A stretch of 64,000 nucleotides of DNA from Sedimentibacter sp. GTDB lineage: Bacteria; Bacillota; Clostridia; Tissierellales; Sedimentibacteraceae. The notes under the pieces are model-generated. The model saw nothing but the letters and a program-made list of their open reading frames with translations, ran no database searches and was not told the DNA's origin. The first letter of the stretch is position 1; every line of letters starts with the position of its first letter. The stretch is taken from positions 855 through 64,854 of the forward strand of contig JBFXKO010000020.1 of the NCBI GenBank assembly GCA_050173715.1, given 5' to 3'. Positions 647 to 41,832 of this stretch are shown one piece after another. The translations under genes and the position numbers were made by a program.

Positions 647-680
647 TCTTTATAAGTTCTTCACAATCATATAGTAACAT
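647..680 (+). promoter_or_regulatory. Tandem direct-repeat activator site plus -10 box (site 1 of 5)
   Basis: TCTTTATAAGT/TCTTCACAATC (647-668, 11-bp period); TAACAT at 675-680. Confidence 0.7.
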
Positions 681-685
681 TTAAA

Positions 686-700
686 TACCCCGCGGGGGTG
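686..700. promoter_or_regulatory. CsoR-type operator
   Basis: TACCCCGCGGGGGTG, a C-tract/G-tract pseudo-palindrome typical of CsoR operators, just upstream of an HMA gene. Confidence 0.7.
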
Positions 701-720
701 CGGTATAAGGAGGTTTTAAA

Positions 721-957
721 ATGAATACTACTCAAACAATTAAATTAAAGCAAAGTAATATGTTATGCAATAGATGTTTAACGAATGTAGTCAAAGCTCT
801 CAGTCTCATAGAAGGGATTCAAGAATTAAATGTAAATCTTGATAAAAAGTTAATTAAGATTACTTATGATAATGACAAATTTACAAAAAAGGTAATTCAA
901 AAAATTATTAATGATTCAATCGTTCACGGAAAAGTGGACAGCAAAATATATTCATAA
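721..957 (+). CDS. Heavy-metal-associated (HMA) domain protein, CopZ-like
   Basis: MLCNRC CxxC motif, HMA-length protein, AGGAGG RBS. Confidence 0.85.
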   Translation: MNTTQTIKLKQSNMLCNRCLTNVVKALSLIEGIQELNVNLDKKLIKITYDNDKFTKKVIQKIINDSIVHGKVDSKIYS

Positions 958-982
958 AAATTTTTATTGAAAGGTGACAAAA

Positions 983-3649
983 ATGAAAATAGGCTTAGAT
1001 GTTGGTTCAACTACACTTAAATGCGTAGTTTTAGACGATGATGATAATTTAATATTTCACTCATATGAAAGACATTATTCTCAGATTAACCAAAAAACTG
1101 CTTTTTTACTAAAGCAAATAAAAGAAAGGTATCCAAAAGAAGAGTGTTTTGATTTAGCCATATCTGGCTCAGCAGGTATGGGGCTAGCAGGGAACTGTGG
1201 GATTCCATTTATTCAAGAAGTATATTCCACAAGAATAGCAGTAAAAAAAATACTTCCATATACAGATATAGTAATTGAACTAGGTGGCGAAGATGCTAAA
1301 ATTCTTTTTCTTCAAATAGTATGGAAGTTAGAATGAACGGTTCTTGTGCAGAAGGTACAGGTGCGTTTATAGACCAGATGGCTACACTTTTAAACGTAAG
1401 TTTAGATGAAATGAATGAGTTAGCAAAGAATTCTAACAAGATTTATACTATAGCCTCACGATGTGGAGTATTTGCAAAATCAGATGTGCAGCCTCTACTA
1501 AATCAAGGAGCAAATAAAAATGATATATCTGCTAGCATATTAGCAGCAGTTGTAAATCAAACAATTGCAGGATTAGCTCAAGGTAGAGAAATAGCAGGAC
1601 AAGTAGTATATCTTGGGGGACCTCTTACATTTTTATCAGAGTTAAGAAAAAGCTTCAATAATATATTGGGTGTCAAGGGCATCTGTCCCGAAAACTCATT
1701 ATACTATGTAGCACTGGGTGCAGCTTACACTGATTTGAGAGAGCCAATGAATATAAGTGAATTGATAGAAAAAATAGAAAATTACAAATCAGAGGCTGGA
1801 TATGCAAGTTCCATGACATTGTTTGAGAATGAGCCAAACTATAATGATTTTTTTGATAGACATTCTAGAGAAAAAGTAGAATATAGTAAACCTGAAAATT
1901 ATATAGGTGACGCATATTTAGGGATAGATGCAGGTTCAACAACGGTTAAGGCAACTGTAATAGATGAAAATGAAGACATACTATACTCTAAATATTTATC
2001 TAATAGTGGAAATCCAGTGCCAATAATAAAAGATTTTTTGATAGAATTTTATGATAATTATCCAAATATAAATATTAAATCATCTTCAGTAACCGGCTAT
2101 GGCGAAGATATAATTAAGAACGCATTTAGAGAAGGAAGGACTTCGCTAAGAATATTCATAGGATATTAGATGAGAACTTTGAAAATATTTCATTATCAGA
2201 GGTGAAAGTCGCCGTAGAAAAAGCTTTTGATGAATATGACTCATATATGAAGAAGGTTAGAGCTATGGGTAAAAACTATATGGACATAGCAGAATCAAAT
2301 AATATGAAGGTTATTGTTTTAGCTGGCAGACCATATCATATAGACCCTGAAATAAATCATGGTATAGCTGGTGGTTAATCTTGCATAATAATATTGTTGA
2401 ATTTACAAAAGATATGAAAGATGAGTATACCATCTTAGTTCCTAATATGTTGCCTATACATTTTTCCATGCTAAAAAGTGTCTTTCACGCTCATGGTTAT
2501 AATATGGTAGTTTTACAAAGTGAAGGACCTAATGTAGTCAATGAAGGATTAAAACTTGTGCATAATGACACATGCTATCCTGCTCTTTTAGTAATAGGAC
2601 AGTTAATAGATGCACTAAAGAGTGAAAATTATGATGTCAATAAAACAGCCCTTATGATAACTCAAACTGGTGGTGGATGTCGAGCTTCAAACTATATTTA
2701 TTTATTAAGAAAGGCATTAGTAAAGGCAGGATATGAAAATGTACCTGTAATTTCTTTAAATGCATCAAATGCATCGGGATTAGAAAAGAATAGTGGATTT
2801 AAATATACTATTCCAATGCTAAGACAGTCCTTAGCAGTAGTAGCATATGGTGATTTGCTTATGCTTTTAGATAATCAAACCAAACCTTATGAAGTCAATA
2901 GAGGGGAAAGTAAAGCCCTTGTTGCTAGTTGGACAGAAAAAATATCGGAGGAATTGAAGTACAATAAAGGATATAAATTTAATGAGTTGCAAGAAAATTT
3001 TAATAGAATATCAAAATCCTTTGCGGATATAAAAAAGGTAAATACACTAAAGGTTAAGGTTGGAATAGTTGGGGAAATCTATGTAAAATACTCTAGTCTA
3101 GGTAATAATAAACTAGAAGAATTTCTATATAATGAAAATTGCGAAATAATGGTGCCAGGATTATTAGGATTTATTATGTATTGTGTTGAAAATGATATTA
3201 TAGATACAGCGCTTTATGGTGGAGGATATATAAAAAGTAAAGTAAGAGCTAAATTGAATGAATATCTTGGTAAATTAGAAAGTGCTTTAATTAAATCCAT
3301 GAGTCAATATGAAGGCTTTGTAGCACCAACTGGCTTCAAGCATATAAAAACGCTTGGTGAGAAAGTAATTGGATTAGGGACTAAAATGGGTGAGGGCTGG
3401 CTATTACCAGCTGAAATAATGGAACTGATACAAATAGGGTATGAAAATATAATATGTACACAGCCATTTGGATGTTTGCCTAATCATATTATAGGAAAAG
3501 GGATAATTAGCAAGGTCAAGAGAATACATGAAAATGCAAATATTGTTTCTATTGATTATGACCCGGGAGCGACAAAAGTAAACCAAGAAAATAGAATAAA
3601 ATTGATGTTGTCCATAGCAAGAGAAAAACTTCAAACAAAAATAATGTAA
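983..3649 (+). pseudogene. Disrupted CoA-substrate-specific enzyme activase / 2-hydroxyacyl-CoA dehydratase-related fusion (YxcA-like)
   Basis: Two ASKHA motifs (GLDVGSTT, GIDAGSTT). Frameshift near 1310-1320. Out-of-frame middle fragment about 2130-2378 (VIVLAGRPYHIDPEINHG). C-terminal dehydratase-like domain 2381-3649 (HNDTCYPA, QTGGGCRASNY, QPFGCLPNH). Large parts of the usual protein are missing. Confidence 0.85.
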
Positions 3650-3717
3650 TAATTCTATCTCGAATTTTATATATAAAGTTATTATTGGGTGGTACAAGCA
3701 TAATATTCTTAACTGCT

Positions 3718-3751
3718 TCTCCATAAGTTCTTCAAATTGATTTGGTATTAT
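3718..3751 (+). promoter_or_regulatory. Tandem direct-repeat activator site plus -10 box (site 2 of 5)
   Basis: TCTCCATAAGT/TCTTCAAATTG (3718-3739); TATTAT at 3746-3751. Confidence 0.7.
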
Positions 3752-3812
3752 GATAATAAGACATGGACTTAAGCTTGTACGCTCTCTAATGAGACATAAG
3801 GTAGGTGATTTA

Positions 3813-4403
3813 ATGAGTTATAGGAAAATGAACGGATTTACAAGGTTGATTATTGTTGTAGCAGTTCTAGTATTTATATTGACTTTAATCATGAGTTTTA
3901 CATCTTTTCTTTCAGACAGCAATGAGAAAAAAGTATCCAATGAAAAAGTAGCCGAGGAAAATATATCTGTACAGCAAAATGAGGAAGAACCTGTTGAACA
4001 GTCCCAGTCAGATGGTTCTAATAATACAGTAAAATATATGACTATCAGCCAAAATGGGAATATCGATATTATCGTAAATTATTTATCCTCTTCGATAGGG
4101 GATAAAGATGTGCTAACATTTGAGGTTTCACTGGGAACACATTCTGTTAGCTTATCAAAGTACAAAGATATAAGGGAATATGTAGAGCTTGTAACAGATA
4201 CCGGAATTGTAGTAAGTGAGGGATTTGAGTGGGAATTGCAAAATGGAGAAGACCACCATACTAGCGGTATATTGAAAATAAAAAATGAAATTGATGGGAA
4301 ACCAATTGTCGGAGAAGATACAAAATCATTTAAACTGGTATTTAGGAATATTCCGGATAAAAGTGAAAGAGAGCACATATACGAAGGAGAAAAGCTTAAA
4401 TAA
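3813..4403 (+). CDS. Membrane-anchored exported protein with THSV and DHH His motifs (uncharacterised)
   Basis: ATG 3813 follows AGGTGA RBS (ORF track starts at 3750). N-terminal TM helix, acidic linker, LGTHSVSL and GEDHHTSGIL motifs. Confidence 0.8.
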   Translation: MSYRKMNGFTRLIIVVAVLVFILTLIMSFTSFLSDSNEKKVSNEKVAEENISVQQNEEEPVEQSQSDGSNNTVKYMTISQNGNIDIIVNYLSSSIGDKDVLTFEVSLGTHSVSLSKYKDIREYVELVTDTGIVVSEGFEWELQNGEDHHTSGILKIKNEIDGKPIVGEDTKSFKLVFRNIPDKSEREHIYEGEKLK

Positions 4404-4422
4404 TGAGCGAGAAAGATAAGGG

Positions 4423-5184
4423 GTGGGTTACATGTTTACATCCATTTATATTGTAGCATTTATTGCAGGATTAGTTTCTTTCCTGTCACCTTGTATAATA
4501 CCGATGATTACCGTGTATTTCAGTCTAATCACAGGCATGTCCGCAAAGGAACTTAAAGAGACCGGTAAAAGTAAAGCTATAAGGTTGAAGATAATAATAA
4601 ATACGCTTTTATTTATCTTGGCATTTACTATTGTTTTTACACTTGCTGGTGCTGCATCAGGAAAGGCTGCAAGTTTTATTAAAGAGAATATTGGTGTATT
4701 CAATGTTATTGGCGGTATTTTTGTTATTTTTCTCTCATTAAAACTTTTGGGCTTTTTTAAAACTGTTTCTTTCAGTATAAAAGCCCTGGATAATCTGTTT
4801 GACAGGTTTAAAGAGAGAGCTTCTACCAGATACCTTACCACTTTTTTAGTTGGAATATTCTTTGCCGTTGCTTGTTCACATTGTATTGGACCCTTATTAT
4901 ATTCAATGTTGATTTTTGCAGGAAGCATGGGTTCCTCCTATACTGGTATGGCAGTAATGTTCATGTTTTCAATAGGGCTAGGAGTGCCATATCTGTTGGT
5001 AGGGATAGCCTTTGGAAAGTCAATGGGTATATTGAAGAGAATTCAGAAATATCATACAGTGATATCATATGTGACAGGTGTAATTCTTCTTATTTTTGGG
5101 ATATTGTTGTTATTTAACAAATTCACATTAATGGTTGAACTACTATATAAATTCATTCCTTTCAGTTTACCTATAGGAATGTAG
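4423..5184 (+). CDS. ccdA: Cytochrome c biogenesis / disulfide-reducing membrane protein CcdA (DsbD transmembrane domain)
   Basis: FLSPCIIP and ACSHCIGP Cys motifs in a roughly 6-TM protein; likely ATG at 4432. Confidence 0.88.
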   Translation: MGYMFTSIYIVAFIAGLVSFLSPCIIPMITVYFSLITGMSAKELKETGKSKAIRLKIIINTLLFILAFTIVFTLAGAASGKAASFIKENIGVFNVIGGIFVIFLSLKLLGFFKTVSFSIKALDNLFDRFKERASTRYLTTFLVGIFFAVACSHCIGPLLYSMLIFAGSMGSSYTGMAVMFMFSIGLGVPYLLVGIAFGKSMGILKRIQKYHTVISYVTGVILLIFGILLLFNKFTLMVELLYKFIPFSLPIGM

Positions 5185-5436
5185 GAAATTATTGCTGACG
5201 CCAATGCAGTTAGGCTCTGCGGATATTCTGAAGGAATAGCTGATGCATTAGAAAAAAAATTAGTTTCAACAAATTTGTAGATGAGAAAAAAACCAGTGTT
5301 CAACAATTAATCGAATGCTGGTTTATTTTTTTAAATTTTTTATTATTGTAATTTTTCCAAAGGTTGAAGCAATATTAATTAAAAAGTTTAAGAAGAATGA
5401 TTTAAAATTTATAAAATAGTTAATAATATTTTTAAA

Positions 5437-5470
5437 TCTTCACAATTTCTACATAATCTTTTGTTAACAT
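5437..5470 (+). promoter_or_regulatory. Tandem direct-repeat activator site plus -10 box (site 3 of 5)
   Basis: TCTTCACAATT/TCTACATAATC (5437-5458); TAACAT at 5465-5470. Confidence 0.7.
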
Positions 5471-5486
5471 ACATATATAAAAGAAA

Positions 5487-5501
5487 CACCCCCCGGGGGT
5501 A
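5487..5501. promoter_or_regulatory. CsoR operator
   Basis: CACCCCCCGGGGGTA immediately upstream of csoR. Confidence 0.8.
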
Positions 5502-5522
5502 TGGTTAATGGAGTGGATTCTG

Positions 5523-5789
5523 ATGAACAAAGAGAAAGAAAATGCTGTTACTTCTTTAAAGACAGCAAAAGGGCAAATTGAAGGAATTATTAAAATGTTA
5601 GAGGATGATAGATATTGTGTTGATATATCAAATCAAATAATTGCAGCACAATCACTGTTAAAAAAGGCTAATATTTTAATTTTAAGGCAACACATTCATC
5701 ATTGTGTAAAAGAAGCAATAAAAGAAGAAACCGGTGATGAAAAGATAGACGAAATAATAAATATTTTAGAAAAAATAATACAAAAATAA
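5523..5789 (+). CDS. csoR: Copper-sensing repressor CsoR
   Basis: GQIEGIIKMLEDDRYCVDI and HIHHCV (C-H-C ligands); heads the copA operon. Confidence 0.92.
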   Translation: MNKEKENAVTSLKTAKGQIEGIIKMLEDDRYCVDISNQIIAAQSLLKKANILILRQHIHHCVKEAIKEETGDEKIDEIINILEKIIQK

Positions 5790-5804
5790 AAAGGAGTGGT
5801 TTTA

Positions 5805-5951
5805 ATGTTTAAATTTATTAAAAATTGGCTAGACAGATTAGCTAAAGAGAATCAAAAAACTTTTGGAACAGGTAGAATGGATTGCTGTGATTTAAATAAA
5901 CCAAAAAACACAAATACACAAGCTGCTACCAGTAATACAAATAAGAAATGA
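5805..5951 (+). CDS. LDCC-motif putative metal-binding small protein (48 aa); not in ORF track
   Basis: AAGGAG RBS. MFKFIKNWLDRLAKENQKTFGTGRMDCCDLNKPKNTNTQAATSNTNKK. Lies between csoR and copA, and its stop overlaps the copA RBS. Confidence 0.85.
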   Translation: MFKFIKNWLDRLAKENQKTFGTGRMDCCDLNKPKNTNTQAATSNTNKK

Positions 5952-5961
5952 GGTGTAATGA

Positions 5962-8418
5962 TTGGAAAAGAGTCTTAAAATAGAAGGAATGACCTGTGCA
6001 TCCTGCGCTAAGACAGTTGAAAAAGCTACTAAGAAAGTACAGGGTGTAACAGATGCAAATGTAAACTTTGCAACTGAAAAGTTAAATGTAACCTTTGATG
6101 ATTCAAAGGTTACTGTAAAGGATATACAAGCTGCTGTAGAAAAAGCAGGATACAAAGCTTTATCTGAAGCTGTAACAAAAACAATGAAAATACAGGGAAT
6201 GACATGTGCATCCTGTGCTGCAAATATAGAAAAAGCTACAAGAAAGCTTAATGGGGTAACTGAATCAAATGTAAATTTTGCTACAGAAAAGTTAACCATA
6301 AGTTATGAACCAACATTAGTGAAAGTTTCAGAAATAAAGAATGCAATTGAAAAAGCAGGGTATAAAGCAGTCGAAGAGGAAACTTCAGTAGATGCTGACA
6401 AGGAAAGAAAAGAAAAAGAGATAAAATCTTTATGGGGAAGATTTGTAATATCAGCAATTTTTACGACACCTCTGTTATACATGGCAATGGGTCATATGTT
6501 TGGAGAAATGCTTGGAATAAAATTACCTGAAGTTATAGATCCAATGATGAATCCATGGAACTTTGCAATAGTACAGTTGATTTTAGTTACACCACCTATG
6601 ATTGTAGGTTACAAATATTTTACCGTAGGTTTTAAATCGTTGTTTAGAGGAAGTCCAAATATGGATTCACTTATAGCAATAGGTACAGCTGCAGCTTTCT
6701 TATACGGAATTTATGCAATTGTACAGATTTATAACGGCAATGGTGATTATGCTAATGAATTGTATTTTGAAGCAGGAGGAGTAATATTAACCCTTATTAC
6801 ATTAGGGAAATATTTAGAATCAGTTACAAAAGGAAAAACATCTGAGGCAATAAAGAAATTAATGGGGCTTGCACCTAAGACAGCAATAATTATAAGAGAT
6901 GGCAAGGAAGTTGAAATTTCAATTGAAGATGTTGAAGTTGGAGATGTTATAGTAGTTAAACCTGGAGAAAAAATGCCGGTAGACGGAGAGGTTATAGAAG
7001 GAACAACTTCAGTAGATGAATCAATGCTTACAGGTGAAAGTATTCCAGTAGAAAAAAATATTGGTGACGGCATTATAGGTGCAAGTATAAATAAAAACGG
7101 AACAATAAAATATAAGGCTACAAAAGTCGGTAAGGATACAGCACTGGCACAAATTATAAAATTGGTTGAAGATGCTCAGGGTTCTAAAGCACCTATAGCA
7201 AAATTAGCCGATGTTATTTCAGGATATTTTGTTCCTGTGGTAATAGCTCTTTCAATAATATCAGCATTGGCATGGTACTTCTTAGGAGGGCAATCAACAG
7301 TATTTGCTTTAACAATATTTATATCAGTTCTTGTTATAGCCTGCCCATGCGCATTAGGATTGGCAACTCCGACAGCTATAATGGTTGGAACAGGAAAGGG
7401 AGCTGAAAACGGAGTATTGATTAAAAGCGGTGTTGCGTTAGAAACAACACATAAAATTAAAACAATCGTATTTGATAAAACCGGTACAATAACAGAAGGA
7501 AAACCAAAGGTAACAGATATAATAACTGCAAATGGAATACAAGAAAATGATTTGCTGCAATTAACAGCATCTGCTGAAAAGGGTTCAGAACATCCACTTG
7601 GTGAAGCAATAGTAAAAGGTGCTGAAGAAAAGGGACTAGAATTTAAAAACCTTGATGCATTCAATGCAATACCTGGTCATGGAATTGAAGTTAAAATTGA
7701 CGGCAAAAATATATTGGCAGGCAACAGAAAGCTTATGGTTGAACGCAACATTTCATTGGAAAACTTGGAATCAACATCTAACAAGCTTGCAGAAGAAGGT
7801 AAAACACCTATGTATGTTGCTATAGATAATAAGATAGCAGGTATAATAGCAGTAGCAGATACAGTTAAGGAAAACAGCAAAAGAGCTATTGAAAAATTGC
7901 ATCAAATGGGTATAGAAGTAGCAATGATTACAGGTGACAACAGAAGAACAGCAGAAGCTATAGCAAGACAAGTGGGAATAGACAGAACACTCGCAGAAGT
8001 ATTGCCGCAGGATAAAGCTAATGAAGTTAAGAAGCTTCAATCTGAAGGGAAAAAGGTTGCAATGGTTGGTGACGGTATAAATGATGCTCCTGCCTTGGCT
8101 CAAGCTGATATAGGTATAGCCATAGGTTCAGGAACAGACGTAGCAATGGAATCAGCTGATATAGTATTGATGAGAAGTGATTTGATGGATGTACCGACAG
8201 CCATACAGCTAAGTAAAAGCACAATAAGAAATATAAAACAAAATCTGTTTTGGGCTTTTGGTTATAACACATTAGGTATACCTGTAGCTATGGGAATCCT
8301 GTACCTCTTTGGAGGGCCACTGTTAAATCCAATGTTTGCAGCAGCAGCAATGAGTTTAAGTTCAGTATCAGTATTAGCAAATGCATTAAGATTAAAGAGA
8401 TTTAAGCCGGTTAGATAA
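5962..8418 (+). CDS. copA: Copper-translocating P1B-type ATPase
   Basis: Two GMTCASC HMA domains, TGES, CPC, DKTGT, SEHPL, GDGIND, YN and MxxSS motifs; TTG start. Confidence 0.97.
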
Positions 8419-8470
8419 TTAATAAAATAATTATTTAATATATAAAATACAAAATAATGGAGGATATGAA

Positions 8471-8686
8471 ATGAAAAAGAAAATATTAATTGAAGGAATG
8501 AGCTGTCAACATTGTGTAAATCACGTAACAGAAGCTTTAGGAGAAATTTGCGGAGTAAAATCTGTAAATGTAGATTTAGATAATAAGAACGCTGTAGTTG
8601 AACTGGCACATCCGGTAGACGATGCAAAGTTTAAGGAAGCTGTTGATGAAGCAGGTTATGAAGTTGTTGGAATAGAAGCATTATAA
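8471..8686 (+). CDS. copZ: Copper chaperone CopZ
   Basis: GMSCQHC motif, 71 aa, directly after copA. Confidence 0.92.
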   Translation: MKKKILIEGMSCQHCVNHVTEALGEICGVKSVNVDLDNKNAVVELAHPVDDAKFKEAVDEAGYEVVGIEAL

Positions 8687-8701
8687 TTTATATGTAATTA
8701 T

Positions 8702-8738
8702 AAAATGGCTTTGATAGTTAACTGTTGAAGCCATTTTT
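8702..8738 (+). terminator. Rho-independent terminator of the cop operon
   Basis: AAAATGGCTT...AAGCCATTTT stem followed by a T-tract. Confidence 0.7.
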
Positions 8739-8899
8739 TATGGAATTTTTTACTATAGTTTTAAAGATAATAACACAAATGTGGTTATTAAATTTGTTAA
8801 AAGGGTATATTAAATTATAATTATTTTTCTGAATAATAAGAAATTAAAGTTGTTAAGTTTTAATGATTTTACAGCTAACAGAAGTATAGGAGGAAACTT

Positions 8900-9169
8900 A
8901 TGAAATTAATTGACAATATATTTAGAAAAAAAGATGATACTATTATGTATACTTCAGATACTTGAGATGATTGTAAGGAAGCAAAAAGTTTTTTTGCAGA
9001 AAATCAAATAGAAGTTATATATAAAAATGTAGCAGATAAACAGAATAGGAATGAGCTTATGAAAAAATATGATCGTATGGTTGTCCCAACAATTATAATA
9101 GGAAATAAGATTCTTTTAGGATTTGCAGATAATAGAGATGAAATTATAAAACTTTTAAAACTAAGTTAA
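8900..9169 (+). CDS. Glutaredoxin/NrdH-like selenoprotein (UxxC), 89 aa; not in ORF track
   Basis: AGGAGG RBS, ATG 8900, in-frame TGA at 8963-8965 in YTSDT-U-DD-C-KEAKSFF. The frame continues through VVPTIIIGNKILLGF (Grx cis-Pro motif) to TAA at 9167-9169. Confidence 0.85.
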
Positions 9170-9185
9170 CTTAATATCAAACTGT

Positions 9186-9219
9186 ACTTCACAAGTTCTT
9201 CATAGTTATATAGTAAAAT
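9186..9219 (+). promoter_or_regulatory. Tandem direct-repeat activator site plus -10 box (site 4 of 5)
   Basis: ACTTCACAAGT/TCTTCATAGTT (9186-9207); TAAAAT at 9214-9219. Confidence 0.7.
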
Positions 9220-9266
9220 CTATATACATAAAGCTTTTAATTAAAAAGCATGATGGAGGAACTAAT

Positions 9267-9602
9267 ATGAATTGTCATGGAAATAACGATGGAAATAATA
9301 AAGAAAATTATAACGAAAATAAAGGGATGCACAATCATAGTCCGATAAAGCATATGCTTCATATGATTCTTTGCTGCGGATTGCCAATATTAATTTTTGC
9401 TGCACTACCGTTTATATCAAAGGTTAGTCCGGGAGCCAGCAGGATATTATTAGTGATTGCTCCATTTATATGTCCGTTAATGATGATAGGAATGATACCA
9501 ATGATGTTAGGCGGTGGAAAGAATAATAAAAAATCAAGCTACTGTGAAAACAAAGAAAGTATCTCCAAAGCACAACTTGAGTTAAATGAACCAACAGAAT
9601 AA
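9267..9602 (+). CDS. Small His/Cys/Met-rich two-TM membrane protein (DUF2933-like)
   Basis: HNHSPIKHMLHMILCCGLP and ICPLMMIGMIPMM motifs; GGAGG RBS. Confidence 0.75.
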   Translation: MNCHGNNDGNNKENYNENKGMHNHSPIKHMLHMILCCGLPILIFAALPFISKVSPGASRILLVIAPFICPLMMIGMIPMMLGGGKNNKKSSYCENKESISKAQLELNEPTE

Positions 9603-9687
9603 GTTGAATTTTGCAAAAAATGATAGCAATTTTATTATTGTTGCGACTATGGCGTGATGAGTAAAAAATTAACTAACATTTAATAAA

Positions 9688-9717
9688 AGATTAATGCCAA
9701 ACGGCATTAATTTTTGT
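9688..9717 (+). terminator. Rho-independent terminator
   Basis: ATTAATGCC-AAAC-GGCATTAAT followed by Ts. Confidence 0.7.
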
Positions 9718-9745
9718 TATTTAAAAAGAAAAAGGTGTTTTAATA

Positions 9746-12700
9746 ATGAAAAAATTTTTTAATAACAGATATAATGTTTTGTTTTTAATATTCGCTTTGC
9801 TTTTGATAATTTTAGGATATAGAATGGCTGTATTGACAATCGTTGAAGGGGCTAGCTACAGAGAAATTGCAGATGTTAAGAAAATTAAAGATATACCTGT
9901 CAAGGCTCCAAGAGGAAAAATATATGACAGAAACGGAGTTGTCTTAGCAGACAATGTACCAAGCTTCACGGTACAAATGTTTACTGACCAAATAAATGAA
10001 GAAGATTTTAATCAAATATCATATACTTTGTCTAAAATATTAGATATAAATGCGGAAAATTCTATAGATGAATTTCCTATACTTTTAGATTTATTAGAAT
10101 TTAAACAAAATATAAAGTTGGACAAGACAGCCAATGAAGAAGTTATTGATTCTGTAAAAGACAATATAAATGATTGGTTCAATTATGAAACGATAATTTA
10201 CGGTGAAAGGTTCAGTCCTAAAGAACTGGTATTAAAAACGATAAAAAAGGATATAAAAGATTTAAATATTGAACTTAAAGACGGACAATTTGTTTTTGCT
10301 GATGAGGATGAAGAACAGGAGGTATCAGGATTAACAGATGAAAGAAATAAGTTAAAAAATCAAAATCCTAAAGATATTATTATCGAGAAGCTATTGAACG
10401 AAAACAAATTCATACTGGAGCTTTTTTCTAATTCAAAAATCAGAAAATTTTCTTTTGAATTTTTAAAATCCATAGACCTTGCAGGCAATATCGAATTAGT
10501 TGAGTATTCATTCTCATATGATAATGAATTTAAAAACATAAAGAGGAATTTATCTCTGGCAAATGAAGAAATTACTGATGCAACAAATGCAAAGGATGAT
10601 TTTGTTGTCCTTACATTAAAAAATTCAATTGATAATTTATTGCTTGCTAATTATGAATCTAAAAATGAGAAAATAATACCTGGTAAAATACTTATTGAAA
10701 GATTAAAAGAAATTTATCCTGATTTTCCTGTTGAATATTATGAAAATGGACAAACAGTCTTATTTGAATTTACAGATGAAAAAACAAAGATGAAATATCT
10801 GAATCAATATAATTTTGACATTGAAATAAATGCATTAGATTTTATAAAAGAAATGGCAGCAAAAAATTATAATATTTTATATGACTTTATTACAAACGAC
10901 GAAATAAAATATTATGCCCAAGCAGAACTTTTAAAATATATAAATCCGCATATTTCAATAGATAATTGGGAATACACACCCATCAAAAACAAAAAAATAT
11001 GGATAAGCAAAAATATTGATTCAGAAGAAAATAACACTATCTATGCTGCAGAAGAATCATTTAATGCGTTAAGAGAGAAGTTGAAAGTAGATTTTAATAT
11101 TAACGACTATGACTTCCGAAACATGTTAGTTATTAGAGAAAGGTATAACAAAACAAGTTATCTTTCATATCATCCCGTAGATATAGCCTATGGAATTTCT
11201 GAAAAATCTGTCGCTATGATTTCAGAAAGATCACATGAATTAAATGGAATAAATGTTGAAATCGAACCGCTCCGAAGTTATCCTGAAAAAGAATCCGCAG
11301 CGCACATTTTAGGATATCTAGGCAAGATTTCACAGGAGAATGAAATAAAAGAATACATTGATGAGAATGGTTACAGCCCTGAAGACATCATAGGAAAAAC
11401 AGGAGTTGAAGAAAAGTTTGAACACTATTTAAGAGGAGAAAAAGGAAAGAAAACTGTTGAAGTTAATAATTTTGGAGAAACAATAAAGTCAGTTTCAAGT
11501 CAGGCGCCGGTACCAGGCGATGATTTGTATCTTACAATAGATATTAACTTACAAAAGAAGGCTGAGGAATCACTAAAAAAAGGTTTGGAACAGATACAAA
11601 ATGGCGGAGTCTTTGAAAGTGAATGGGGTAATTTCAATTTTGGAGACAGCTATGAAGATGCAACATCAGGCTCATTGGTTGCATTGGATGTAAAAACAGG
11701 AGAAGTTTTAGCAATGGCAAATTATCCATCATATGATTTAAACATGTTTTCAACGGGTATTTCTGCCGAAGATTGGAACAACCTCCAAAATGAATCAAGA
11801 AATCCTCTTGCTCCAAAATCTTTGTACAATATTGCAATGCTTACTTCTATTCAACCAGGCTCTACTTTTAAAATGGTAACAGCATTAGCAGCGCTTGAGA
11901 AAGGTGTTGACCCGCTTACTGAAATATATTGTCCAGGAACTATTAAAGTAGGAGATAGAAACTTTAACTGCTGGTCATATACTCTCTTTGGCTATGGACA
12001 TGGGTGGCAAAATATGTATGAAGCTATACAAAATTCATGCAATATATATTTTTTTGTAACTGTATTAGGAGTAAATCCGGCTACTGACCAAAAACACACA
12101 GTTCAAGTTGATGTAGATGATATAATTGAAACAGCTAAGATGTTAGGCTTAGATAGCAAAACAGGAATTGAAATAGATATTCCACAGGAATCTTCAGGAG
12201 GAGTTCCAAGTATAGATGGTAAAAAATCAAGTATAAGAGTGTATTTAAGAATATTTTTGGAAGGTAATTTGGAAAAATATTTATATAATGGTTCTAATTT
12301 AGGTGAAGACATGAAAAATGAAATAATAGAAGAAATAGTAAGCTGGATTGACAGAGAAGAACCATTGACCAGGGGAGAAGTATACGAAAACTTAAAATTG
12401 CTGGGAGTAAATCCGGATATAACAAATAACAATAATGTACCTTTGGTTGATATTATTAAATATTCTTTCATAAACCAGGCACACTGGACGGCTGGGGACA
12501 ATTTAAATATTGCTATCGGTCAGGGTTCTAATTCCTACACAGCTCTTCAAATGTCTAATTATGCTTCTATAATTGCTAATGGTGGCTACAAAAGAAATGT
12601 TAGTGTTATAAAAGAAATTAAAACATTTGATGGACAAAAAACGGATTATATTCCATTACGAGAATCTGAAAGAATTGAGCTTTCTGATTACAATCATTTG

Positions 12701-13003
12701 GAAATATTAAAGGAAGGCATGAGAAGAGTTTCATCGGAAGACAGTGGAAGACCATATGCTAATTTTCCGGTTGAAGTTGGAAGCAAGACAGGTACAGCAC
12801 AAAAGGAAGGGATAAATCCTGAAACAGGTGAACCTTATGATGAATTTGCCTGGTATGTTGCATTTGCTCCTTATGATGATCCTCAAATAGCAGTAGCAAT
12901 AGTTTTATTTCAAGGTGGTTCAGGAAGATATCCTACCCCTATTGCCAGAGAGGTAATTGGCGAATATTTGAAGATAAAAGGCATTGTTCAAACGAATAAT
13001 TAA
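9746..13003 (+). CDS. Large class B penicillin-binding protein (PBP2/MrdA-like transpeptidase with insertions)
   Basis: N-terminal TM helix, APRGKIYDRNG, SxxK (GSTFK), SxN (SCN) and KTG motifs; 1085 aa. Confidence 0.92.
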   Translation: MKKFFNNRYNVLFLIFALLLIILGYRMAVLTIVEGASYREIADVKKIKDIPVKAPRGKIYDRNGVVLADNVPSFTVQMFTDQINEEDFNQISYTLSKILDINAENSIDEFPILLDLLEFKQNIKLDKTANEEVIDSVKDNINDWFNYETIIYGERFSPKELVLKTIKKDIKDLNIELKDGQFVFADEDEEQEVSGLTDERNKLKNQNPKDIIIEKLLNENKFILELFSNSKIRKFSFEFLKSIDLAGNIELVEYSFSYDNEFKNIKRNLSLANEEITDATNAKDDFVVLTLKNSIDNLLLANYESKNEKIIPGKILIERLKEIYPDFPVEYYENGQTVLFEFTDEKTKMKYLNQYNFDIEINALDFIKEMAAKNYNILYDFITNDEIKYYAQAELLKYINPHISIDNWEYTPIKNKKIWISKNIDSEENNTIYAAEESFNALREKLKVDFNINDYDFRNMLVIRERYNKTSYLSYHPVDIAYGISEKSVAMISERSHELNGINVEIEPLRSYPEKESAAHILGYLGKISQENEIKEYIDENGYSPEDIIGKTGVEEKFEHYLRGEKGKKTVEVNNFGETIKSVSSQAPVPGDDLYLTIDINLQKKAEESLKKGLEQIQNGGVFESEWGNFNFGDSYEDATSGSLVALDVKTGEVLAMANYPSYDLNMFSTGISAEDWNNLQNESRNPLAPKSLYNIAMLTSIQPGSTFKMVTALAALEKGVDPLTEIYCPGTIKVGDRNFNCWSYTLFGYGHGWQNMYEAIQNSCNIYFFVTVLGVNPATDQKHTVQVDVDDIIETAKMLGLDSKTGIEIDIPQESSGGVPSIDGKKSSIRVYLRIFLEGNLEKYLYNGSNLGEDMKNEIIEEIVSWIDREEPLTRGEVYENLKLLGVNPDITNNNNVPLVDIIKYSFINQAHWTAGDNLNIAIGQGSNSYTALQMSNYASIIANGGYKRNVSVIKEIKTFDGQKTDYIPLRESERIELSDYNHLEILKEGMRRVSSEDSGRPYANFPVEVGSKTGTAQKEGINPETGEPYDEFAWYVAFAPYDDPQIAVAIVLFQGGSGRYPTPIAREVIGEYLKIKGIVQTNN

Positions 13004-13010
13004 TTTTATA

Positions 13011-13053
13011 TAAAAACGCCTATGTAATTTTTAAAATCACATAGGCGTTTTTT
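13011..13053. terminator. Bidirectional terminator between convergent genes
   Basis: AAAAACGCCTATGT...ACATAGGCGTTTTT. Confidence 0.8.
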
Positions 13054-14401
13054 ATTGTATTGTTATTGTACTGCTTATCATACCCATCCAGCATGTGTAA
13101 GTTATAGTTCCGGCTTGTGTTGGAGTAAATTCAATTGTATTTTCTCCAAGTTCAAGTTTTTGCTGAATTCCATATTGGGGTATTATAATTTCATTGTTGC
13201 AACCGTTCAATGTGCCTTTATCAGCTATTATTGTCCATTTCAAAGGGGCTCCGGCATATACGGTAATTGGCTGGTATTTGCCTGGCTCAAGTTTTGTTGT
13301 TACTGTCTGGTTGCCGTCATTAATAACAGCATTTACAGACTTTCCACTTTGGTTTAAATCTATTCCCAGAGGAGATAAAATGGCATTTGCTATATTAATT
13401 CCTGCCAATGAAAAACCTCTGTTTCCCATGATAATACCTAATATGATAACTAACATAGCACTTATTTTCATCATTTGTTTAGTAAACTTAGAACTCAGTA
13501 TTGAACTGAAAGCGCCAAAAGCAAACATCATAGGCACAGTTCCTATGCTAAAAATTAACATTGATAATGCGCCTGTAAAAAAGCTTCCTGTTCCAAGAGC
13601 ATAAAGCTGCATTGCCTGTAATGGACCACAAGGCATAAATCCATTAAGCAAACCTACAATAAATGGTCCATTATTATTTTTCTTATTGTCAATTTTATTA
13701 GTTAAACTTTTAGGAAGACGTGGCATTATTTTTCTCAATTTAGCGGATAAGCCTAACATGTTAATACCCATGATGATCATGAATAACCCTGCTATAAATG
13801 AAATCAATGCTTTACCTTTCAGTGAAATACTAAAAATTGAACCAAGAGCACCAACCAATCCTCCTAAAATTGTGTAAGATGTCACTCTCCCAAGGTTATA
13901 TAAAAAACTTGGTTTAAGCTTACTGTATATATTGTTTTCACATCCGTTGCATCCCGAACATTGAGATAAATTTATTCCGCCGCACATAGCTATACAGTGA
14001 ACTGATGTAAAAAGTCCTGCTACGAAAAGCATGCCATAACCCATACTCTGTGTTATTTGCGGGAAAAAGTTAAAACCAACAGTATTATTAATGATTACAT
14101 ACAGACCGACGATAATGAGACCAATTAACAAAGTAGTGGTGATAGATGATTCTTCTTCTATATTATCATCATCGAGTATAACATCATAACCTTTTTTCTT
14201 GATAGTTTCGTAAATAATGTTTATATCAATTTCTTCTGGTATATATGTTATTTCTGCTGTAGATGAAGCATAGCTTACATTTATCTTTAAAACTCCATCC
14301 AATTTGTTTATTGCTTTCTCAATCTTATTTTCACAAGCTGTGCAGGTAACCCCATCTAATTTAATAATTTTTTGTTCAGTTAACTTCTGCATTTTTACCA
14401 A
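13052..14401 (-). CDS. HMA + DsbD_2/TauE-like membrane domain + cupredoxin-like domain protein
   Basis: GVTCTAC HMA motif, TSVHCIAMCGG, FMPCGPLQ, C-terminal LNGCNN...YTCWMGM; likely ATG at 14392. Confidence 0.85.
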   Translation of the reverse strand: MVKMQKLTEQKIIKLDGVTCTACENKIEKAINKLDGVLKINVSYASSTAEITYIPEEIDINIIYETIKKKGYDVILDDDNIEEESSITTTLLIGLIIVGLYVIINNTVGFNFFPQITQSMGYGMLFVAGLFTSVHCIAMCGGINLSQCSGCNGCENNIYSKLKPSFLYNLGRVTSYTILGGLVGALGSIFSISLKGKALISFIAGLFMIIMGINMLGLSAKLRKIMPRLPKSLTNKIDNKKNNNGPFIVGLLNGFMPCGPLQAMQLYALGTGSFFTGALSMLIFSIGTVPMMFAFGAFSSILSSKFTKQMMKISAMLVIILGIIMGNRGFSLAGINIANAILSPLGIDLNQSGKSVNAVINDGNQTVTTKLEPGKYQPITVYAGAPLKWTIIADKGTLNGCNNEIIIPQYGIQQKLELGENTIEFTPTQAGTITYTCWMGMISSTITIQ

Positions 14402-14944
14402 CTAGTTTTTCCAATTTGCAAATATACCTTCAGCTTCAACAAGTAAATCCTTAGGAATTGTAATTGTTGAGTCAGTTTCTGTTTTCATTTCTTTAAATAT
14501 TGGAACAGGGTTACATCCGCCTCTTGCTACTTCAACTTCATCCATTTTAAATCTGTTCCCACAGTTTTGACATACCAACACATCACCTTCCTGTACGTAA
14601 TATCCTCTTCCTGAAGAATAACATACTTGACAAGTATTAAATGCTGTTCTTACTGTTCCATCTGATGCCTTGACAGCTAAAATTTCCATGTATGTGTCAA
14701 GTTCATCATAAGCATAGAATGTGGCAGTATCGGTTACATCAGCCTTAGGAATAACCATATCTCCTTTTTCGTCAGTTACTGATGTTGCTGTTGGCTTTGG
14801 TTGCTCTGTTAAGTTTTCATCTTCATTTTTAGAATTTAAAAAAGTAAATGCTGCTATGCCTATTACTATAACTGCTACAACTCCAAGAATTACATTAGAG
14901 TTTTTCTTTGATGATTTACCTTTGCCTTTTTTACTATTCTTCAT
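14402..14944 (-). CDS. DUF2318 family Cys-rich (putative Fe-S/metal-binding) membrane-anchored protein
   Basis: TM anchor; TCQVC, VCQNCGNRF and GGCNPVP motifs. Confidence 0.85.
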   Translation of the reverse strand: MKNSKKGKGKSSKKNSNVILGVVAVIVIGIAAFTFLNSKNEDENLTEQPKPTATSVTDEKGDMVIPKADVTDTATFYAYDELDTYMEILAVKASDGTVRTAFNTCQVCYSSGRGYYVQEGDVLVCQNCGNRFKMDEVEVARGGCNPVPIFKEMKTETDSTITIPKDLLVEAEGIFANWKN

Positions 14945-14979
14945 ATTATTATCCTTTCAATAAATTAAACTTAGAAATT

Positions 14980-15013
14980 ATCATAATAAAACTTTATGAA
15001 GATTTAATGGAGA
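14980..15013 (-). promoter_or_regulatory. Tandem direct-repeat activator site plus -10 box (site 5 of 5)
   Basis: Minus strand TCTCCATTAAA/TCTTCATAAAG (15013-14992); TATGAT at 14985-14980. Confidence 0.7.
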
Positions 15014-15142
15014 TTTAATAAAAATATCGAATTTCAAAGCATTGAATATTCAAGATTGTAGAAAATTGTAGAAAAATAGTGATAGCATTTTGTCATTGTG
15101 ACCATAAGATATACCATAAATTAATTATCAGGAGGACTTACA

Positions 15143-16069
15143 ATGCAATATAGAAACAATTTTGTTCAACAATCATTAGAGTTGCATCTATTTTTTTCAA
15201 GAATTATGAAGGAACACTCTTTTTTTCTACAAATAGCATTTACGCCCAGAGATTTGAATTATTCTCAAAAAGCTGATGAATTCAGAAGGGAATATGATAA
15301 GGTTTTGGATGAAGTTATTTTTCTTTCCAATGGCAATGTAGGGCAAAGCGTGCTTCAATCTGGTGAAGTTTTTACTCCTTACACGATACCAGCTGAAATG
15401 GCATCTTCTTATTTTACAGGGGTTAGGATTCCAAGTGAACTGACACAAAGAGAAGCACAATTGATGGGGAGCAATAATATTACTGTCAATTCACAATTAG
15501 AAGAAAGAGTTTATCAGATAAATCAGAGGGTTATAGAATTAACTCAAGCATTAATACAATTTAAAACTAATATTTTGAATAATGTATTATCTTGCAACAT
15601 GTTTACAGTTAATTATCCATTATTAATAGATCACATAATGCGAGAAGCAAAGCTTTACGTACAAACAATACAAAGAATCCAAAGCAGAGAATATATTGAT
15701 GTTGAAAGAGAAGCTTTAGAGCAAGAAATGTTTTGGAACAGAATAATGGCAGAGCATTCAAAATTTATACGTGGTTTCCTTGACCCATCCGAGGTTGAAT
15801 TATTTGATGCAGCTAATAATTTTGGTAAAGAGTTTGATCAATTAACTTTAGATGCAAAAGCTGCAATGGATATGACAATACCTGTGGCTAAGGTTACAAA
15901 TGATAGCCTGAAAGCTACTCAAGCAATAAGAGATTTTAAAACCCAAGGAACCCAAGGAATACTTGAATGCAAAATAAAATCAATTATTATACCTTTATTG
16001 GGTGATCATACAATTCGTGAAGCAAGTCACTACTTAAGACTTTTAAATATTTTTAAAAATTATAATTAA
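15143..16069 (+). CDS. DUF2935 domain protein
   Basis: Duplicated FFSRIMKEHS / FWNRIMAEHS motifs and DHIMREA / DHTIREA. Confidence 0.85.
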   Translation: MQYRNNFVQQSLELHLFFSRIMKEHSFFLQIAFTPRDLNYSQKADEFRREYDKVLDEVIFLSNGNVGQSVLQSGEVFTPYTIPAEMASSYFTGVRIPSELTQREAQLMGSNNITVNSQLEERVYQINQRVIELTQALIQFKTNILNNVLSCNMFTVNYPLLIDHIMREAKLYVQTIQRIQSREYIDVEREALEQEMFWNRIMAEHSKFIRGFLDPSEVELFDAANNFGKEFDQLTLDAKAAMDMTIPVAKVTNDSLKATQAIRDFKTQGTQGILECKIKSIIIPLLGDHTIREASHYLRLLNIFKNYN

Positions 16070-21907: not shown

Positions 21908-21985
21908 AATTGTCACCGTAGTGATTGTAAAAAATTACCATTTGATTTTTGATAATAATTGTATATAATAATAAAAATTAATATA

Positions 21986-22262
21986 CAGCGATGATGGGAA
22001 GAGTAATTTGAAACTTAAGTCACAGAGAGATAGCGTTGGTGAGAGTCTATTATAACAGTTTTAAATGAAGAACATCCCTGAGCTTTTGACCCAAATTGCA
22101 ATTTACAAATGCAAAAGTAGGCTCAAACGCATCCGAGCGTTACAGCGGCAAAGACATGATAGTGTCTTTCGAGTGAGCCTGTACGTAAGTGCATGTTAAT
22201 TAGGGTGGTACCGCGAATGAATATAACTCCTTCGTCCCTTTCCAGGGATGGAGGAGTTTTTG
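21986..22262 (+). ncRNA. T-box riboswitch, probable Asn (AAC) specifier
   Basis: AGTA (GAGTA) in stem I, AGAGA/GGTGAGA apical motifs, GAAG-AAC-ATCCC specifier (AAC 22071-22073), T-box AATTAGGGTGGTACCGCG (22198-22215), terminator 22225-22262. Confidence 0.9.
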
Positions 22263-37608: not shown

Positions 37609-37667
37609 TTTAATAAATTTAATAAGTTTAATAAATTTAAAAAATATGTAAAATATAATTAAAATAC

Positions 37668-37707
37668 TTTACATATTTTTTACATTTTACCGATAAATTT
37701 TTTACAT
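37668..37707 (+). promoter_or_regulatory. Pho boxes upstream of pstS
   Basis: TTTACAT at 37668, 37679 and 37701 (11-bp register, degenerate unit at 37690). Confidence 0.8.
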
Positions 37708-37763
37708 ACGGGGTATATATTTAGGACAAAGATTAAAATTGAAATTAAAGGAGAAAAACTCGA

Positions 37764-38639
37764 ATGAAAAATAGGAAATTTCTATCCTTAATTGCATTAG
37801 CTATGGTGATTACTTTAGCTTTTACGGGTTGTGCTAACGGGAAAACATCAGAATTTGATTCTGAAAATGATATTACAGTAGTAGCCAGAGATGCAGCTTC
37901 AGGAACAAGAGGAGCTTTTCATGAGATAATGGGAATTATTCAAAAGCAAGGTGATACACAGGTTGATAATCTTGTGGAGGGCGCTCTTGAGTTTGACGGC
38001 ACAGATAAGGTTATAACAACTGTTGAAGGAGACAAATATGGTATTGGATACATTTCATTAGGTTCAGTGAGCGACAGGACCAAATTGGCTAAAGTTGATG
38101 GTGTTGAGGCAACTATTGATAATGTAAAGAGCGGAAAATATACTGTAGCAAGACCTTTCCTTTTAGTGACTAAAGGAGAAGAAAGCGAATTGGTAAAAGA
38201 TTTCTTAAGCTTTGCAGAATCTAAACAAGGACAGGAAATAACTGCAAGAATGAAATATATTGGAGCAGCAGAAGAACCAAAGGATTACACTGCTAAAGGA
38301 ATTTCCGGAACTATTAAGGTAGCAGGCTCTACATCTGTAACACCTTTGATGGAAAAAATACAAGAAGCATATAAAGAGCTAAACCCTGAAGTTACATTTG
38401 AAATGCAGTCAAATGGTTCATCTCAAGGAATTAAGGCAGCTATTGACGGTTCATATGACATAGGGATGTCTTCAAGAGAATTAAAGGAAGAAGAAGCTGG
38501 AGAATTAAACAGATATATACTTGCAATAGATGGCATTGCAGTAATTATAAACAATGAAAATCCAACAGACAGCTTAACATCACAACAGATTACAAGCATT
38601 TACACTGGTGAAATCACTCAGTGGTCTGAAATTAAATAA
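37764..38639 (+). CDS. pstS: Phosphate-binding lipoprotein PstS
   Basis: Lipobox FTGC, RDAASGTRGAF, AGSTSV, GSSQG motifs. Confidence 0.93.
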   Translation: MKNRKFLSLIALAMVITLAFTGCANGKTSEFDSENDITVVARDAASGTRGAFHEIMGIIQKQGDTQVDNLVEGALEFDGTDKVITTVEGDKYGIGYISLGSVSDRTKLAKVDGVEATIDNVKSGKYTVARPFLLVTKGEESELVKDFLSFAESKQGQEITARMKYIGAAEEPKDYTAKGISGTIKVAGSTSVTPLMEKIQEAYKELNPEVTFEMQSNGSSQGIKAAIDGSYDIGMSSRELKEEEAGELNRYILAIDGIAVIINNENPTDSLTSQQITSIYTGEITQWSEIK

Positions 38640-39520: not shown

Positions 39521-39529
39521 GAGGCAGAA

Positions 39530-40405
39530 ATGGAATTGGTTAATGCCGAAAAAGTATTAAGTAAAAGAAAAATAATATCTTTGGTTTTGAAAGCAGCAGT
39601 TTGGCTCTGTGGAATTTTAACTGTTGGAATATTAATATATATACTTTTATTTATTCTGATTCGTGGAATTCCTAACATCAACATGGAATTCTTGTTTGGA
39701 GAATATAACTCAGAATCGCTTTCTGCTTTTTCATCTATTGTAACAACCATCGAAATGATTTTTATTTCACTTCTTTTTGCAGTTCCCATTGGAGTGTTTT
39801 GTGCAATATATCTCACAGAATATGCAAAAAGAGGAAACAAGGCAGTAAAGGTCATAAGACTTGCTGTTGATACGCTTGCGGGTATACCTTCAATAGTTTA
39901 TGGCTTATTTGGTATGATTTTGTTTGTTAACCTCCTGGGCTTCAGAGCATCAGTATTGTCAGGCATATGCACAGTTTCAATCATGATTTTGCCTGTAATA
40001 ATAAGTTCTTCTGAAGAAGCAATTAAATCAGTGCCTGATATGTATAGAGAAGGAAGTCTTGGATTAGGTGCTACAAGACTTAGAACTGTGTTTAAAATAG
40101 TTTTGCCAACTGCTATGCCTGGAATATTGGCAGGAGTAATTCTAGCTATAGGTAGAATTGTAGGAGAAACTGCAGCATTGATATTTACAAGCGGCACTAA
40201 CGTGTTGGAAAATCCTACATTGGATTTGCTTGCTTCACAAAGAACGCTGGCAATACACATGTACATGTTGGCCAGTGAAGGTCTGCCTCATTCAAAGGAT
40301 ATGGCTTTTGCAACAGGAGCAATTTTGATATTGGTTGTTTTTTTAGTAAATCTTACAACTACTAAGCTTGCAGGAAAACTGGGGAGGCTTGAAAATGATA
40401 AATAA
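39530..40405 (+). CDS. pstA: Phosphate ABC permease PstA
   Basis: [10 protein letters not shown] and [10 protein letters not shown] motifs. Confidence 0.95.
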
Positions 40406-41153: not shown

Positions 41154-41175
41154 AATTAAAAAGGTGGAGGCAGAT

Positions 41176-41823: not shown

Positions 41824-41832
41824 GAGAGAATA

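Follow-up and report, generated by a model that had tools for sequence, protein, structure and literature searches.

Five promoters in a 64,000-nt stretch of the Sedimentibacter sp. contig JBFXKO010000020.1 (the whole stretch is hereafter called the window) share a composite element, in which a head-to-tail repeat of the half-site TCTNCAYAA is followed at a fixed distance by a −10 hexamer. The promoters belong to an island of genes for copper export and thiol-disulfide membrane proteins (Table 1). Their five repeats are probably the sites of one phosphorylated OmpR/PhoB-family regulator that would read DNA in the manner of Escherichia coli BaeR and would resemble CopR of Corynebacterium glutamicum. 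The kind of element is already known; the value of the five sites is that they define a very clean promoter module that extends across phyla and ties membrane families of unknown function to copper/thiol defence.

Each of the five sites consists of two units, TCTYCAYAA-nn, that repeat with a period of 11 bp. Counted from the repeat start, the −10 hexamer begins at exactly +28 bp in five cases out of five. Direct reading bore out the initial annotation of this DNA in the sequences, coordinates and strands of the repeats, in the +28 spacing and in the claim that the repeat takes the place of a −35 box: the −35 position agrees with TTGACA in 0–3 of six bases (0–2 at four of the sites), which is at or below random (best-of-three mean, 2.55). 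A generic sigma-70 scan was uninformative in this AT-rich DNA, with 84 promoters found and 88.5 expected, and the five promoters are absent from the best 60 of the 84. A 22-bp position weight matrix (PWM) trained on the five sites and scored on both strands of the window gives them 23–28 bits, and the next best position on either strand reaches 14.0. The five sites are thus the top five in 64 kb and AT-rich DNA is not matched equally often, an outcome on which the initial annotation had made its claim depend. In a leave-one-out analysis each omitted site still ranks fifth or sixth among 127,958 positions. The invariant columns combined with TANNNT at +28 yield five matches, compared with 0.00 in 100 dinucleotide shuffles. 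Because this pattern was derived from the sites themselves, the latter test is circular, and a pattern taken from the literature was therefore used too. The doubled BaeR box, TCTNCANAA-nn-TCTNCANAA, allowing up to two mismatches, has seven matches in the window where 1.67 are expected by chance; five of these are the claimed sites (0–2 mismatches) and two are others. A tandem half-site PWM found nothing further above 12 bits across the window besides the third half-site of site 2.

The same module is found in other genomes. We scanned one genome per species for the exact pattern TCTHCAYAA-nn-TCTHCAYAA-N8-TANNNT, which among the five window sites only site 3 fits exactly. At least 120 loci with 124 sites were recovered, and about 20 chance matches would be expected in the whole collection by a rough estimate, not a measurement. 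The matches listed come from Clostridia, Bacilli, Negativicutes, Chloroflexota, Bipolaricaulota, Desulfobacteria, Campylobacterota and other taxa. The 124 sites have the 11-bp period as well, and nearly all matches listed have a ribosome-binding site and a start codon ~30–100 bp downstream. At the free positions an extended −10 emerges (T in 56% and G in 45% at the TG positions), with TAtaaT as the −10 itself. Moreover, the PWM detects 23 further sites in these loci, chosen without regard to a −10, and 21 of them have TAnnnT exactly at +28; the fixed spacing is a conserved property of the module. No close relative of the window is among the at least 120 loci listed, the best match being 77% nucleotide identity in copA/csoR.

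Across the same set of loci, the first gene behind the box most often encodes an HMA-DsbD_2/CcdA protein (14 loci), followed by DUF6803 (nine), FtrD-like/DUF2318 proteins (eight), OmpR-family regulators (six), an unnamed secreted Gly/Met-rich family (5–8), HtrA (four), CsoR (three), multicopper oxidase (3–4), NlpC/P60 (three), PepSY (two), DUF1541, which is the CopL family (PMC5947656) (two), a CusB-like adaptor (1–2) and, in L069, a homologue of the 111-aa membrane protein behind site 4. The pair of FtrD-like and HMA-DsbD_2 genes that forms the site 5 operon also stands behind the box in L075, L077, L089, L091, L076 and L048.

The initial annotation attributed the repeats to the OmpR/PhoB family, and the 11-bp tandem, the fixed +28 and the lack of a −35 box agree with that; furthermore, box-led operons elsewhere hold an OmpR-type regulator together with a kinase, beside the same copper/thiol genes. 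Such a regulator is present in 46 of the 120 loci listed, each of which spans at most 8 kb. The search of related genomes that had been proposed, for an autoregulated regulator/kinase pair, led to six regulator genes directly behind a box. Operons of the order box, FtrD-like, HMA-DsbD_2, (CopA), response regulator (RR) and histidine kinase (HK) are found in L075, L077, L089, L091, L106 and L113. In L025 the order is box-RR-HK-copA-copZ-csoR with a divergent box-HMA-DsbD_2, and in L031 (Clostridium) box-csoR-copA-copZ with a divergent, weaker box before RR-HK. Bipolaricaulota and a Fraserbacteria metagenome-assembled genome have box-PepSY-RR-HK, and Bacilli have RR-HK followed by box-DUF1541 or box-multicopper oxidase. 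The DNA-reading helix of 34 out of 45 regulator open reading frames (ORFs) contains H[IV]KN[LI]R within RTID(S/T)HIKNLR, and 29 of these 34 are physically linked to a box. Among the regulators without the exact H[IV]KN[LI]R motif, several differ in the helix and are encoded at other places in the loci; near variants such as HIRNLR are box-linked in a few cases. Kinases encoded beside the linked regulators cross the membrane twice, and their outer loop comes in two forms. The long form comprises 125–148 aa, either with M..M..M after a conserved Cys or, in Chloroflexota, with Met-rich runs, and the short form comprises 29–43 His/Met-rich residues, e.g. KGHEHLMMLHLTDSQEVIHHFD (Bacilli and one Negativicute). 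Loops rich in Met, His and Cys, taken with the list of targets, point to copper and suggest that the linked kinases sense it.

The closest counterparts come from systems that have so far been treated separately. The consensus box of E. coli BaeR is TCTNCANAA (Yamamoto 2008, Nishino 2005, as quoted in PMC3799227), a half-site identical to TCTNCAYAA of the window. E. coli spy has the tandem TCTTCATAAtcTCTGCAAAA, of 11-bp period, in its upstream region. The reading helix of BaeR, DRTIDSHIKNLRRKL (RTIDSHIKNLR), is that of the box-linked regulators, whereas those of RegX3, MtrA, PhoB and the window PhoP differ. BaeS likewise has two membrane passes, with an outer loop of 136 aa like that of the long-form linked kinases, although the Met/His/Cys-richness of the linked-kinase loops sets them apart from BaeS. 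Copper and zinc are among the inducers of BaeSR. Its regulon, however, consists of mdtABCD and acrD, which encode resistance-nodulation-division pumps, and the chaperone gene spy, unlike the copper export and thiol-disulfide membrane proteins of the window, and the strict +28 distance between box and −10 is not seen at mdtA.

In C. glutamicum, the CopR box TGAAGATTTnnTGAAGATTT (TGAAGATTTgaTGAAGATTT) was proven by electrophoretic mobility shift assays and mutagenesis, and CopRS is a copper-responsive, autoregulated OmpR-type pair that counts a multicopper oxidase and a copper ATPase among its targets (PMC3140484). The reverse complement of this box, AAATCTTCAnnAAATCTTCA (AAATCTTCAtcAAATCTTCA), has the same TCTTCA cores 11 bp apart as the window sites. 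Site 5 with its three upstream bases matches the CopR box at 17 of 18 specified positions; sites 1–4 agree with it in the TCTTCA cores and their spacing but lack the AAA in front of each core. The bases after the core differ (TCA in the CopR box, YAA in the window sites), and C. glutamicum has a single site, distant from the mapped start of one of the two target operons. The third counterpart is enterococcal. In a copper island the pair annotated as 'cusRS' adjoins cueO and tcrYAZB, cusR being only predicted to regulate cueO and having no binding site described in that paper (PMC4511184). This CusR shares 54.6% identity with the box-linked regulator of L025, and its helix is DRSIDSHIKNLR. The genes form an HMA-multicopper oxidase-RR-HK cluster with a YdhK/DUF1541 gene, cusR lying between cueO and the YdhK gene. 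On the Enterococcus faecalis plasmid NZ_MH830363 (L127), the box TCTACATAAAATTTCCATAATA occurs at ~5854-5875 on the minus strand, with TATAGT at +28, before lgt and two DUF2933 genes. The enterococcal pair is plasmid-borne and next to its targets, whereas the regulon of the window has no adjacent regulator. As a separate observation, the kinase gene after 'cusR' in L127 reads as frameshifted in the NZ_MH830363 record.

Given the matches to BaeR, CopR and the enterococcal CusR, neither the element nor the regulator is new in kind. The words 'undescribed' and 'unidentified' in the initial annotation do not hold in this respect, since the half-site is the published BaeR box, the CopR box is a close match and a member of the linked family had been annotated as 'cusRS' (PMC4511184). 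A full-text literature search with the half-site strings returned noise only. Collectively, the three systems suggest one common mode of DNA recognition, which, if so, would unify them. The class II pho box of PhoB offers the general design: two direct repeats with an 11-bp period that replace the −35, as here, although half-site and signal differ. At pho boxes the −10 also starts ~28 bp after the box start. Two further systems were considered and rejected. Pseudomonas aeruginosa DsbRS senses copper and activates DsbD-type thiol-disulfide genes as well as its own operon, following the same physiological logic, from copper through a two-component system to DsbD genes, which it shows to be an established one, but it differs in motif (TTAA-N7-TTAA), regulator subfamily and target proteins (bioRxiv 10.1101/2020.08.17.255257). 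Synechocystis CopRS is not the closest relative, as the copM/copB promoters (pSYSX) carry ATTTCAT-N4 repeats and the regulator helix is different.

Several observations weigh against a copper-dedicated, BaeR-like activator. The box-linked regulators score 160–237 bits with the NCBIfam BaeR equivalog NF007982, for which the cut-off is 380, and the L031 regulator, the one PDB-tested, is closer over its whole sequence to RegX3 and MtrA than to BaeR. We therefore describe the linked regulators as working like BaeR/CopR and do not file them as BaeSR; they are BaeR-like in the reading helix, without being BaeR orthologues. They reach 120–180 bits with TIGR01387 (proteobacterial CusR/CopR/SilR), below the cut-off of 279.2, and no named-regulator NCBIfam equivalog was reached by any of them. 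The window encodes no candidate, so the presence of the regulator in this organism has to be read from the quality of the five sites. Part of the targets in other species are not copper genes (HtrA, NlpC/P60, PcsB-like proteins, PepSY and assorted single genes), and 49 of the 124 sites have no recognised family downstream, so the signal could be a broader envelope stress. Finally, sites 1 and 4 have flanking sequence in common (80% identity over 41 nt), which indicates that their similarity stems partly from duplication.

If the regulator responded to envelope stress in general or to thiol/disulfide stress, as BaeSR, CpxAR and CssRS do, it would be of the same type and copper genes would be only part of its output. 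HtrA proteases, the NlpC/P60 and PcsB-like wall hydrolases, PepSY and DUF6803 among the targets would fit this, as would the long kinase loops, equal in size to the BaeS loop, and the three of five window units that encode thiol-disulfide membrane proteins. We nevertheless consider it unlikely: the sensor loops are rich in Met, His and Cys, multicopper oxidase, CopA, CopZ/HMA, DUF1541/CopL, a CusB-like adaptor and csoR recur among the targets, a family member resides in the enterococcal copper-resistance island (PMC4511184), and C. glutamicum CopRS, whose box matches, is copper-specific (PMC3140484). The kinship of sites 1 and 4, which also have in common an upstream block from the 3′ end of a glutaredoxin-like gene, would be the starting point for regarding all five promoters as duplicated copies of a single one, with no dedicated regulator. 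Sites 2, 3 and 5, however, have nothing in common beyond the box and the −10, and the box stands at +28 before the same gene families in distant phyla amid unrelated flanking DNA, which rules out simple promoter duplication and leaves this idea with next to no credence.

A role for the phosphate system would be suggested by its being encoded in the window. A tblastn search with PhoB detected exactly one OmpR-type regulator gene in 64 kb (41833-42528), followed by a kinase gene (pair, 41833-44249). This pair closes a complete pstS-pstC-pstA-pstB-phoU-phoP-phoR cluster (37660-44249), and since pstSCAB-phoU precedes it and the pst boxes are missed by the site PWM, it is a phosphate system and not the cognate pair. 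The initial annotation, which placed the two-component system outside the island, was right, and this extends to the whole 64 kb apart from the unrelated PhoPR. Firmicute Pho boxes are 11-bp-period direct repeats of TT[ATC]ACA, and TTCACA is contained in some of the half-sites. Yet the boxes of the pst promoter, before pstS, are TTTACA-N5-TTTACA and score below 8 bits; the helix of the window PhoP is RTVDMHIKTIR, not RTID(S/T)HIKNLR; and in other genomes the box accompanies copper/thiol genes and a regulator pair of its own, with phosphate genes hardly ever linked to it (a single PHO4-family match). That the island belongs to the phosphate regulon, its boxes being read by the PhoP-like protein, is thus highly improbable. 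It is likewise very improbable, though somewhat less so, that the regulator is a repressor that occludes the promoter and whose absence or unphosphorylated state turns the genes on. The box does overlap the region that RNA polymerase must contact, but the promoters lack a −35 element, the fixed, helically phased distance to the −10 fits activation of the PhoB type, and autoregulated regulator operons behind the box fit positive feedback. Indeed, BaeR and CopR activate at their boxes (PMC3140484; the RefSeq record names BaeR a DNA-binding transcriptional activator).

With a BaeR/CopR-like activator, the two half-sites, spaced by one helical turn, would each take up one of two regulator molecules arranged head-to-tail. 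The downstream half-site, whose end lies 8 bp ahead of the −10, would occupy the usual place of the −35, and from this position the bound dimer would most likely recruit the housekeeping sigma factor in the way PhoB works at pho boxes, which the strict +28 phasing fits; the five promoters would be activator-dependent. The partner kinase would be encoded outside the window and, by analogy, would be a two-pass membrane protein with a Met/His/Cys-rich outer loop, most likely sensing copper, or damage caused by it, outside the cytoplasm. The expected output is a local regulon comprising an HMA chaperone, CcdA, csoR-copA-copZ, the small Cys/His/Met membrane protein and DUF2318-HMA/DsbD_2. At two of the promoters a second input may exist. 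Sites 1 and 3 are followed by GC-rich elements that resemble Firmicute CsoR sites and that we take to be candidate CsoR operators; they are absent at sites 2, 4 and 5. They point to two-input control for the HMA gene and csoR-copA-copZ, in which an operator past the −10 would add a cytoplasmic Cu(I) gate, so that both activator binding and release of CsoR by Cu(I) would be needed. DUF2318 and HMA-DsbD_2 have been reported within a CsoR meta-regulon of gut Firmicutes (PMC4938975).

Accounts of copper control in Firmicutes usually centre on two cytoplasmic repressors, CsoR and CopY. The module, sharply defined and easily searchable, may represent a second, two-component layer of this control, one that in anaerobes connects the export of copper with thiol-disulfide proteins of the membrane. 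For many uncultured lineages the module is a ready predictor of regulons, and it gives a functional context, predicted co-induction with copA and csoR, to DUF2318/FtrD-like proteins, HMA-DsbD_2, DUF6803 and the small Cys/His/Met membrane protein with an MNCHGN N-terminus, which would, if the assignment is true, take their place in extracytoplasmic copper/thiol defence. A wider picture can be offered only tentatively, as a possibility that we rate slightly below an even chance. The box, a 6-bp gap and the −10 would form one composite promoter module, almost unchanged across Clostridia, Bacilli, Negativicutes, Chloroflexota, Bipolaricaulota, Desulfobacteria and Campylobacterota and recognisable in E. 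coli and Corynebacterium. Its reader would be one ancient BaeR/CopR-like lineage with kinases that sense copper through Met/His/Cys loops; the regulon of the window would have become detached from its regulator genes, and two of its promoters would work in series with CsoR, requiring both the extracytoplasmic and the cytoplasmic copper signals.

Table 1. Promoter elements and genes of the five box-led units in the window
Feature	Position	Strand	Sequence or basis
Site 1, tandem box	647-668	+	TCTTTATAAGT/TCTTCACAATC; direct reading, PWM, pattern counts
Site 1, −10 hexamer	675-680	+	TAACAT; starts at +28; no −35
CsoR-operator-like GC-rich element	685-706	+	ATACCCCGCGGGGGTGCGGTAT; just past site 1 −10; direct reading
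HMA-domain (CopZ-like) gene, first behind site 1	721-957	+	Pfam HMA, 2.1e-08
Site 2, extra half-site	3707 (whole element 3707-3739)	+	TCTTAACTG; weaker, in register; half-site PWM
Site 2, tandem box	3718-3739	+	TCTCCATAAGT/TCTTCAAATTG; direct reading, PWM
Site 2, −10 hexamer	3746-3751	+	TATTAT, with TG extension
196-aa membrane-anchored protein, first behind site 2	3813-4403	+	no Pfam match
CcdA/DsbD_TM thiol-disulfide transporter, site 2 operon (3813-5184)	4423-5184	+	Pfam
Site 3, tandem box	5437-5458	+	TCTTCACAATT/TCTACATAATC; 0 mismatches to doubled BaeR box
Site 3, −10 hexamer	5465-5470	+	TAACAT, with TG extension
CsoR-operator-like element	5486-5505	+	ACACCCCCCGGGGGTATGGT; between site 3 −10 and csoR; palindrome detected at 5486-5502
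csoR, site 3 unit (5508-8686)	5508-5789	+	Pfam Trns_repr_metal
copA, P-type ATPase	5962-8418	+	Pfam E1-E2_ATPase and HMA
copZ	8471-8686	+	Pfam HMA
Site 4, tandem box	9186-9207	+	ACTTCACAAGT/TCTTCATAGTT; direct reading, PWM
Site 4, −10 hexamer	9214-9219	+	TAAAAT
111-aa membrane protein behind site 4	9267-9602	+	N-terminal MNCHGN, CC pair, Met-rich helix; no family name
HMA-DsbD_2 with cupredoxin-like tail, site 5 operon	14401-13052	-	Pfam
FtrD-like/DUF2318, site 5 operon (13052-14944)	14944-14402	-	Pfam
Site 5, −10 hexamer	14980-14985	-	TATGAT
Site 5, tandem box	14992-15013	-	TCTCCATTAAA/TCTTCATAAAG; with three upstream bases, AAATCTCCAttAAATCTTCA

Metal or thiol functions had been assigned to the genes behind all five boxes, and Pfam upholds most of these assignments. 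The exception is the 196-aa protein behind site 2, which had been called a His protein: it is not notably His-rich and has no significant homology to the recurrent box-linked families. The 111-aa gene is probably monocistronic, as a terminator-like hairpin (9686-9715) follows it. The island ends at ctsR-mcsA-mcsB-clpC, which places it on the chromosome of a low-GC Firmicute (33% GC). An Rfam scan of the island found nothing.

Several features of the boxes and their surroundings are of interest in themselves. Three or four half-sites in 11-bp register are found in L027, L040 and L082, as with the extra unit at 3707 in the window, and may indicate higher-order binding. About 45 bp upstream of site 5, at 15055-15078 on the minus strand, there is another direct repeat, two copies of TTTTCTACAA with a period of 10 bp; it sits in the divergent region shared with a DUF2935 gene (15143-16069), resembles a shortened half-site, TCTACAA, and may be either an auxiliary site or one for another regulator. 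The block at 566-598 upstream of site 1, aactaagttaacttaatat..caaactgta, recurs from 9150-9185. It corresponds to the last ~35 bp of the glutaredoxin-like gene before site 4 and the bases after it; at site 1 it lies ~50 bp before the box with no gene attached. The block at site 1 thus looks like the remnant of a duplication that would also explain the 80% identity of sites 1 and 4. In other genomes, a ~175-aa unnamed secreted protein with an ITQEQADWM-type repeat and a Gly/Met-rich tail, which has no Pfam match, immediately follows the box and precedes RR-HK, for the most part in Chloroflexota (L017, L041, L054, L078, L085, L099, L108 and L111).

The glutaredoxin-like gene itself (89 codons, 8900-9169, plus strand) has an in-frame TGA (8963-8965) at the first Cys of its CxxC motif (TSDT-U-DDC) and is a candidate selenoprotein gene. 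A hairpin a few bases past this TGA has a minimum free energy of −11.8 kcal/mol (z −2.7) and no Rfam match. The HMA gene of site 1 is followed, after a gap of 16 bp, by a run of three to four ORFs (120, 282, 58 and 422 aa; 974-3649, plus strand) that contain pieces of BcrAD_BadFG ATPase and DUF2229 and look like one large gene of the coenzyme A enzyme activase type broken by frameshifts. Outside the island, after clpC and before a 588-aa ORF at 22371, a T-box leader is located at 21982-22242 on the plus strand (Rfam RF00230, 122.8 bits).

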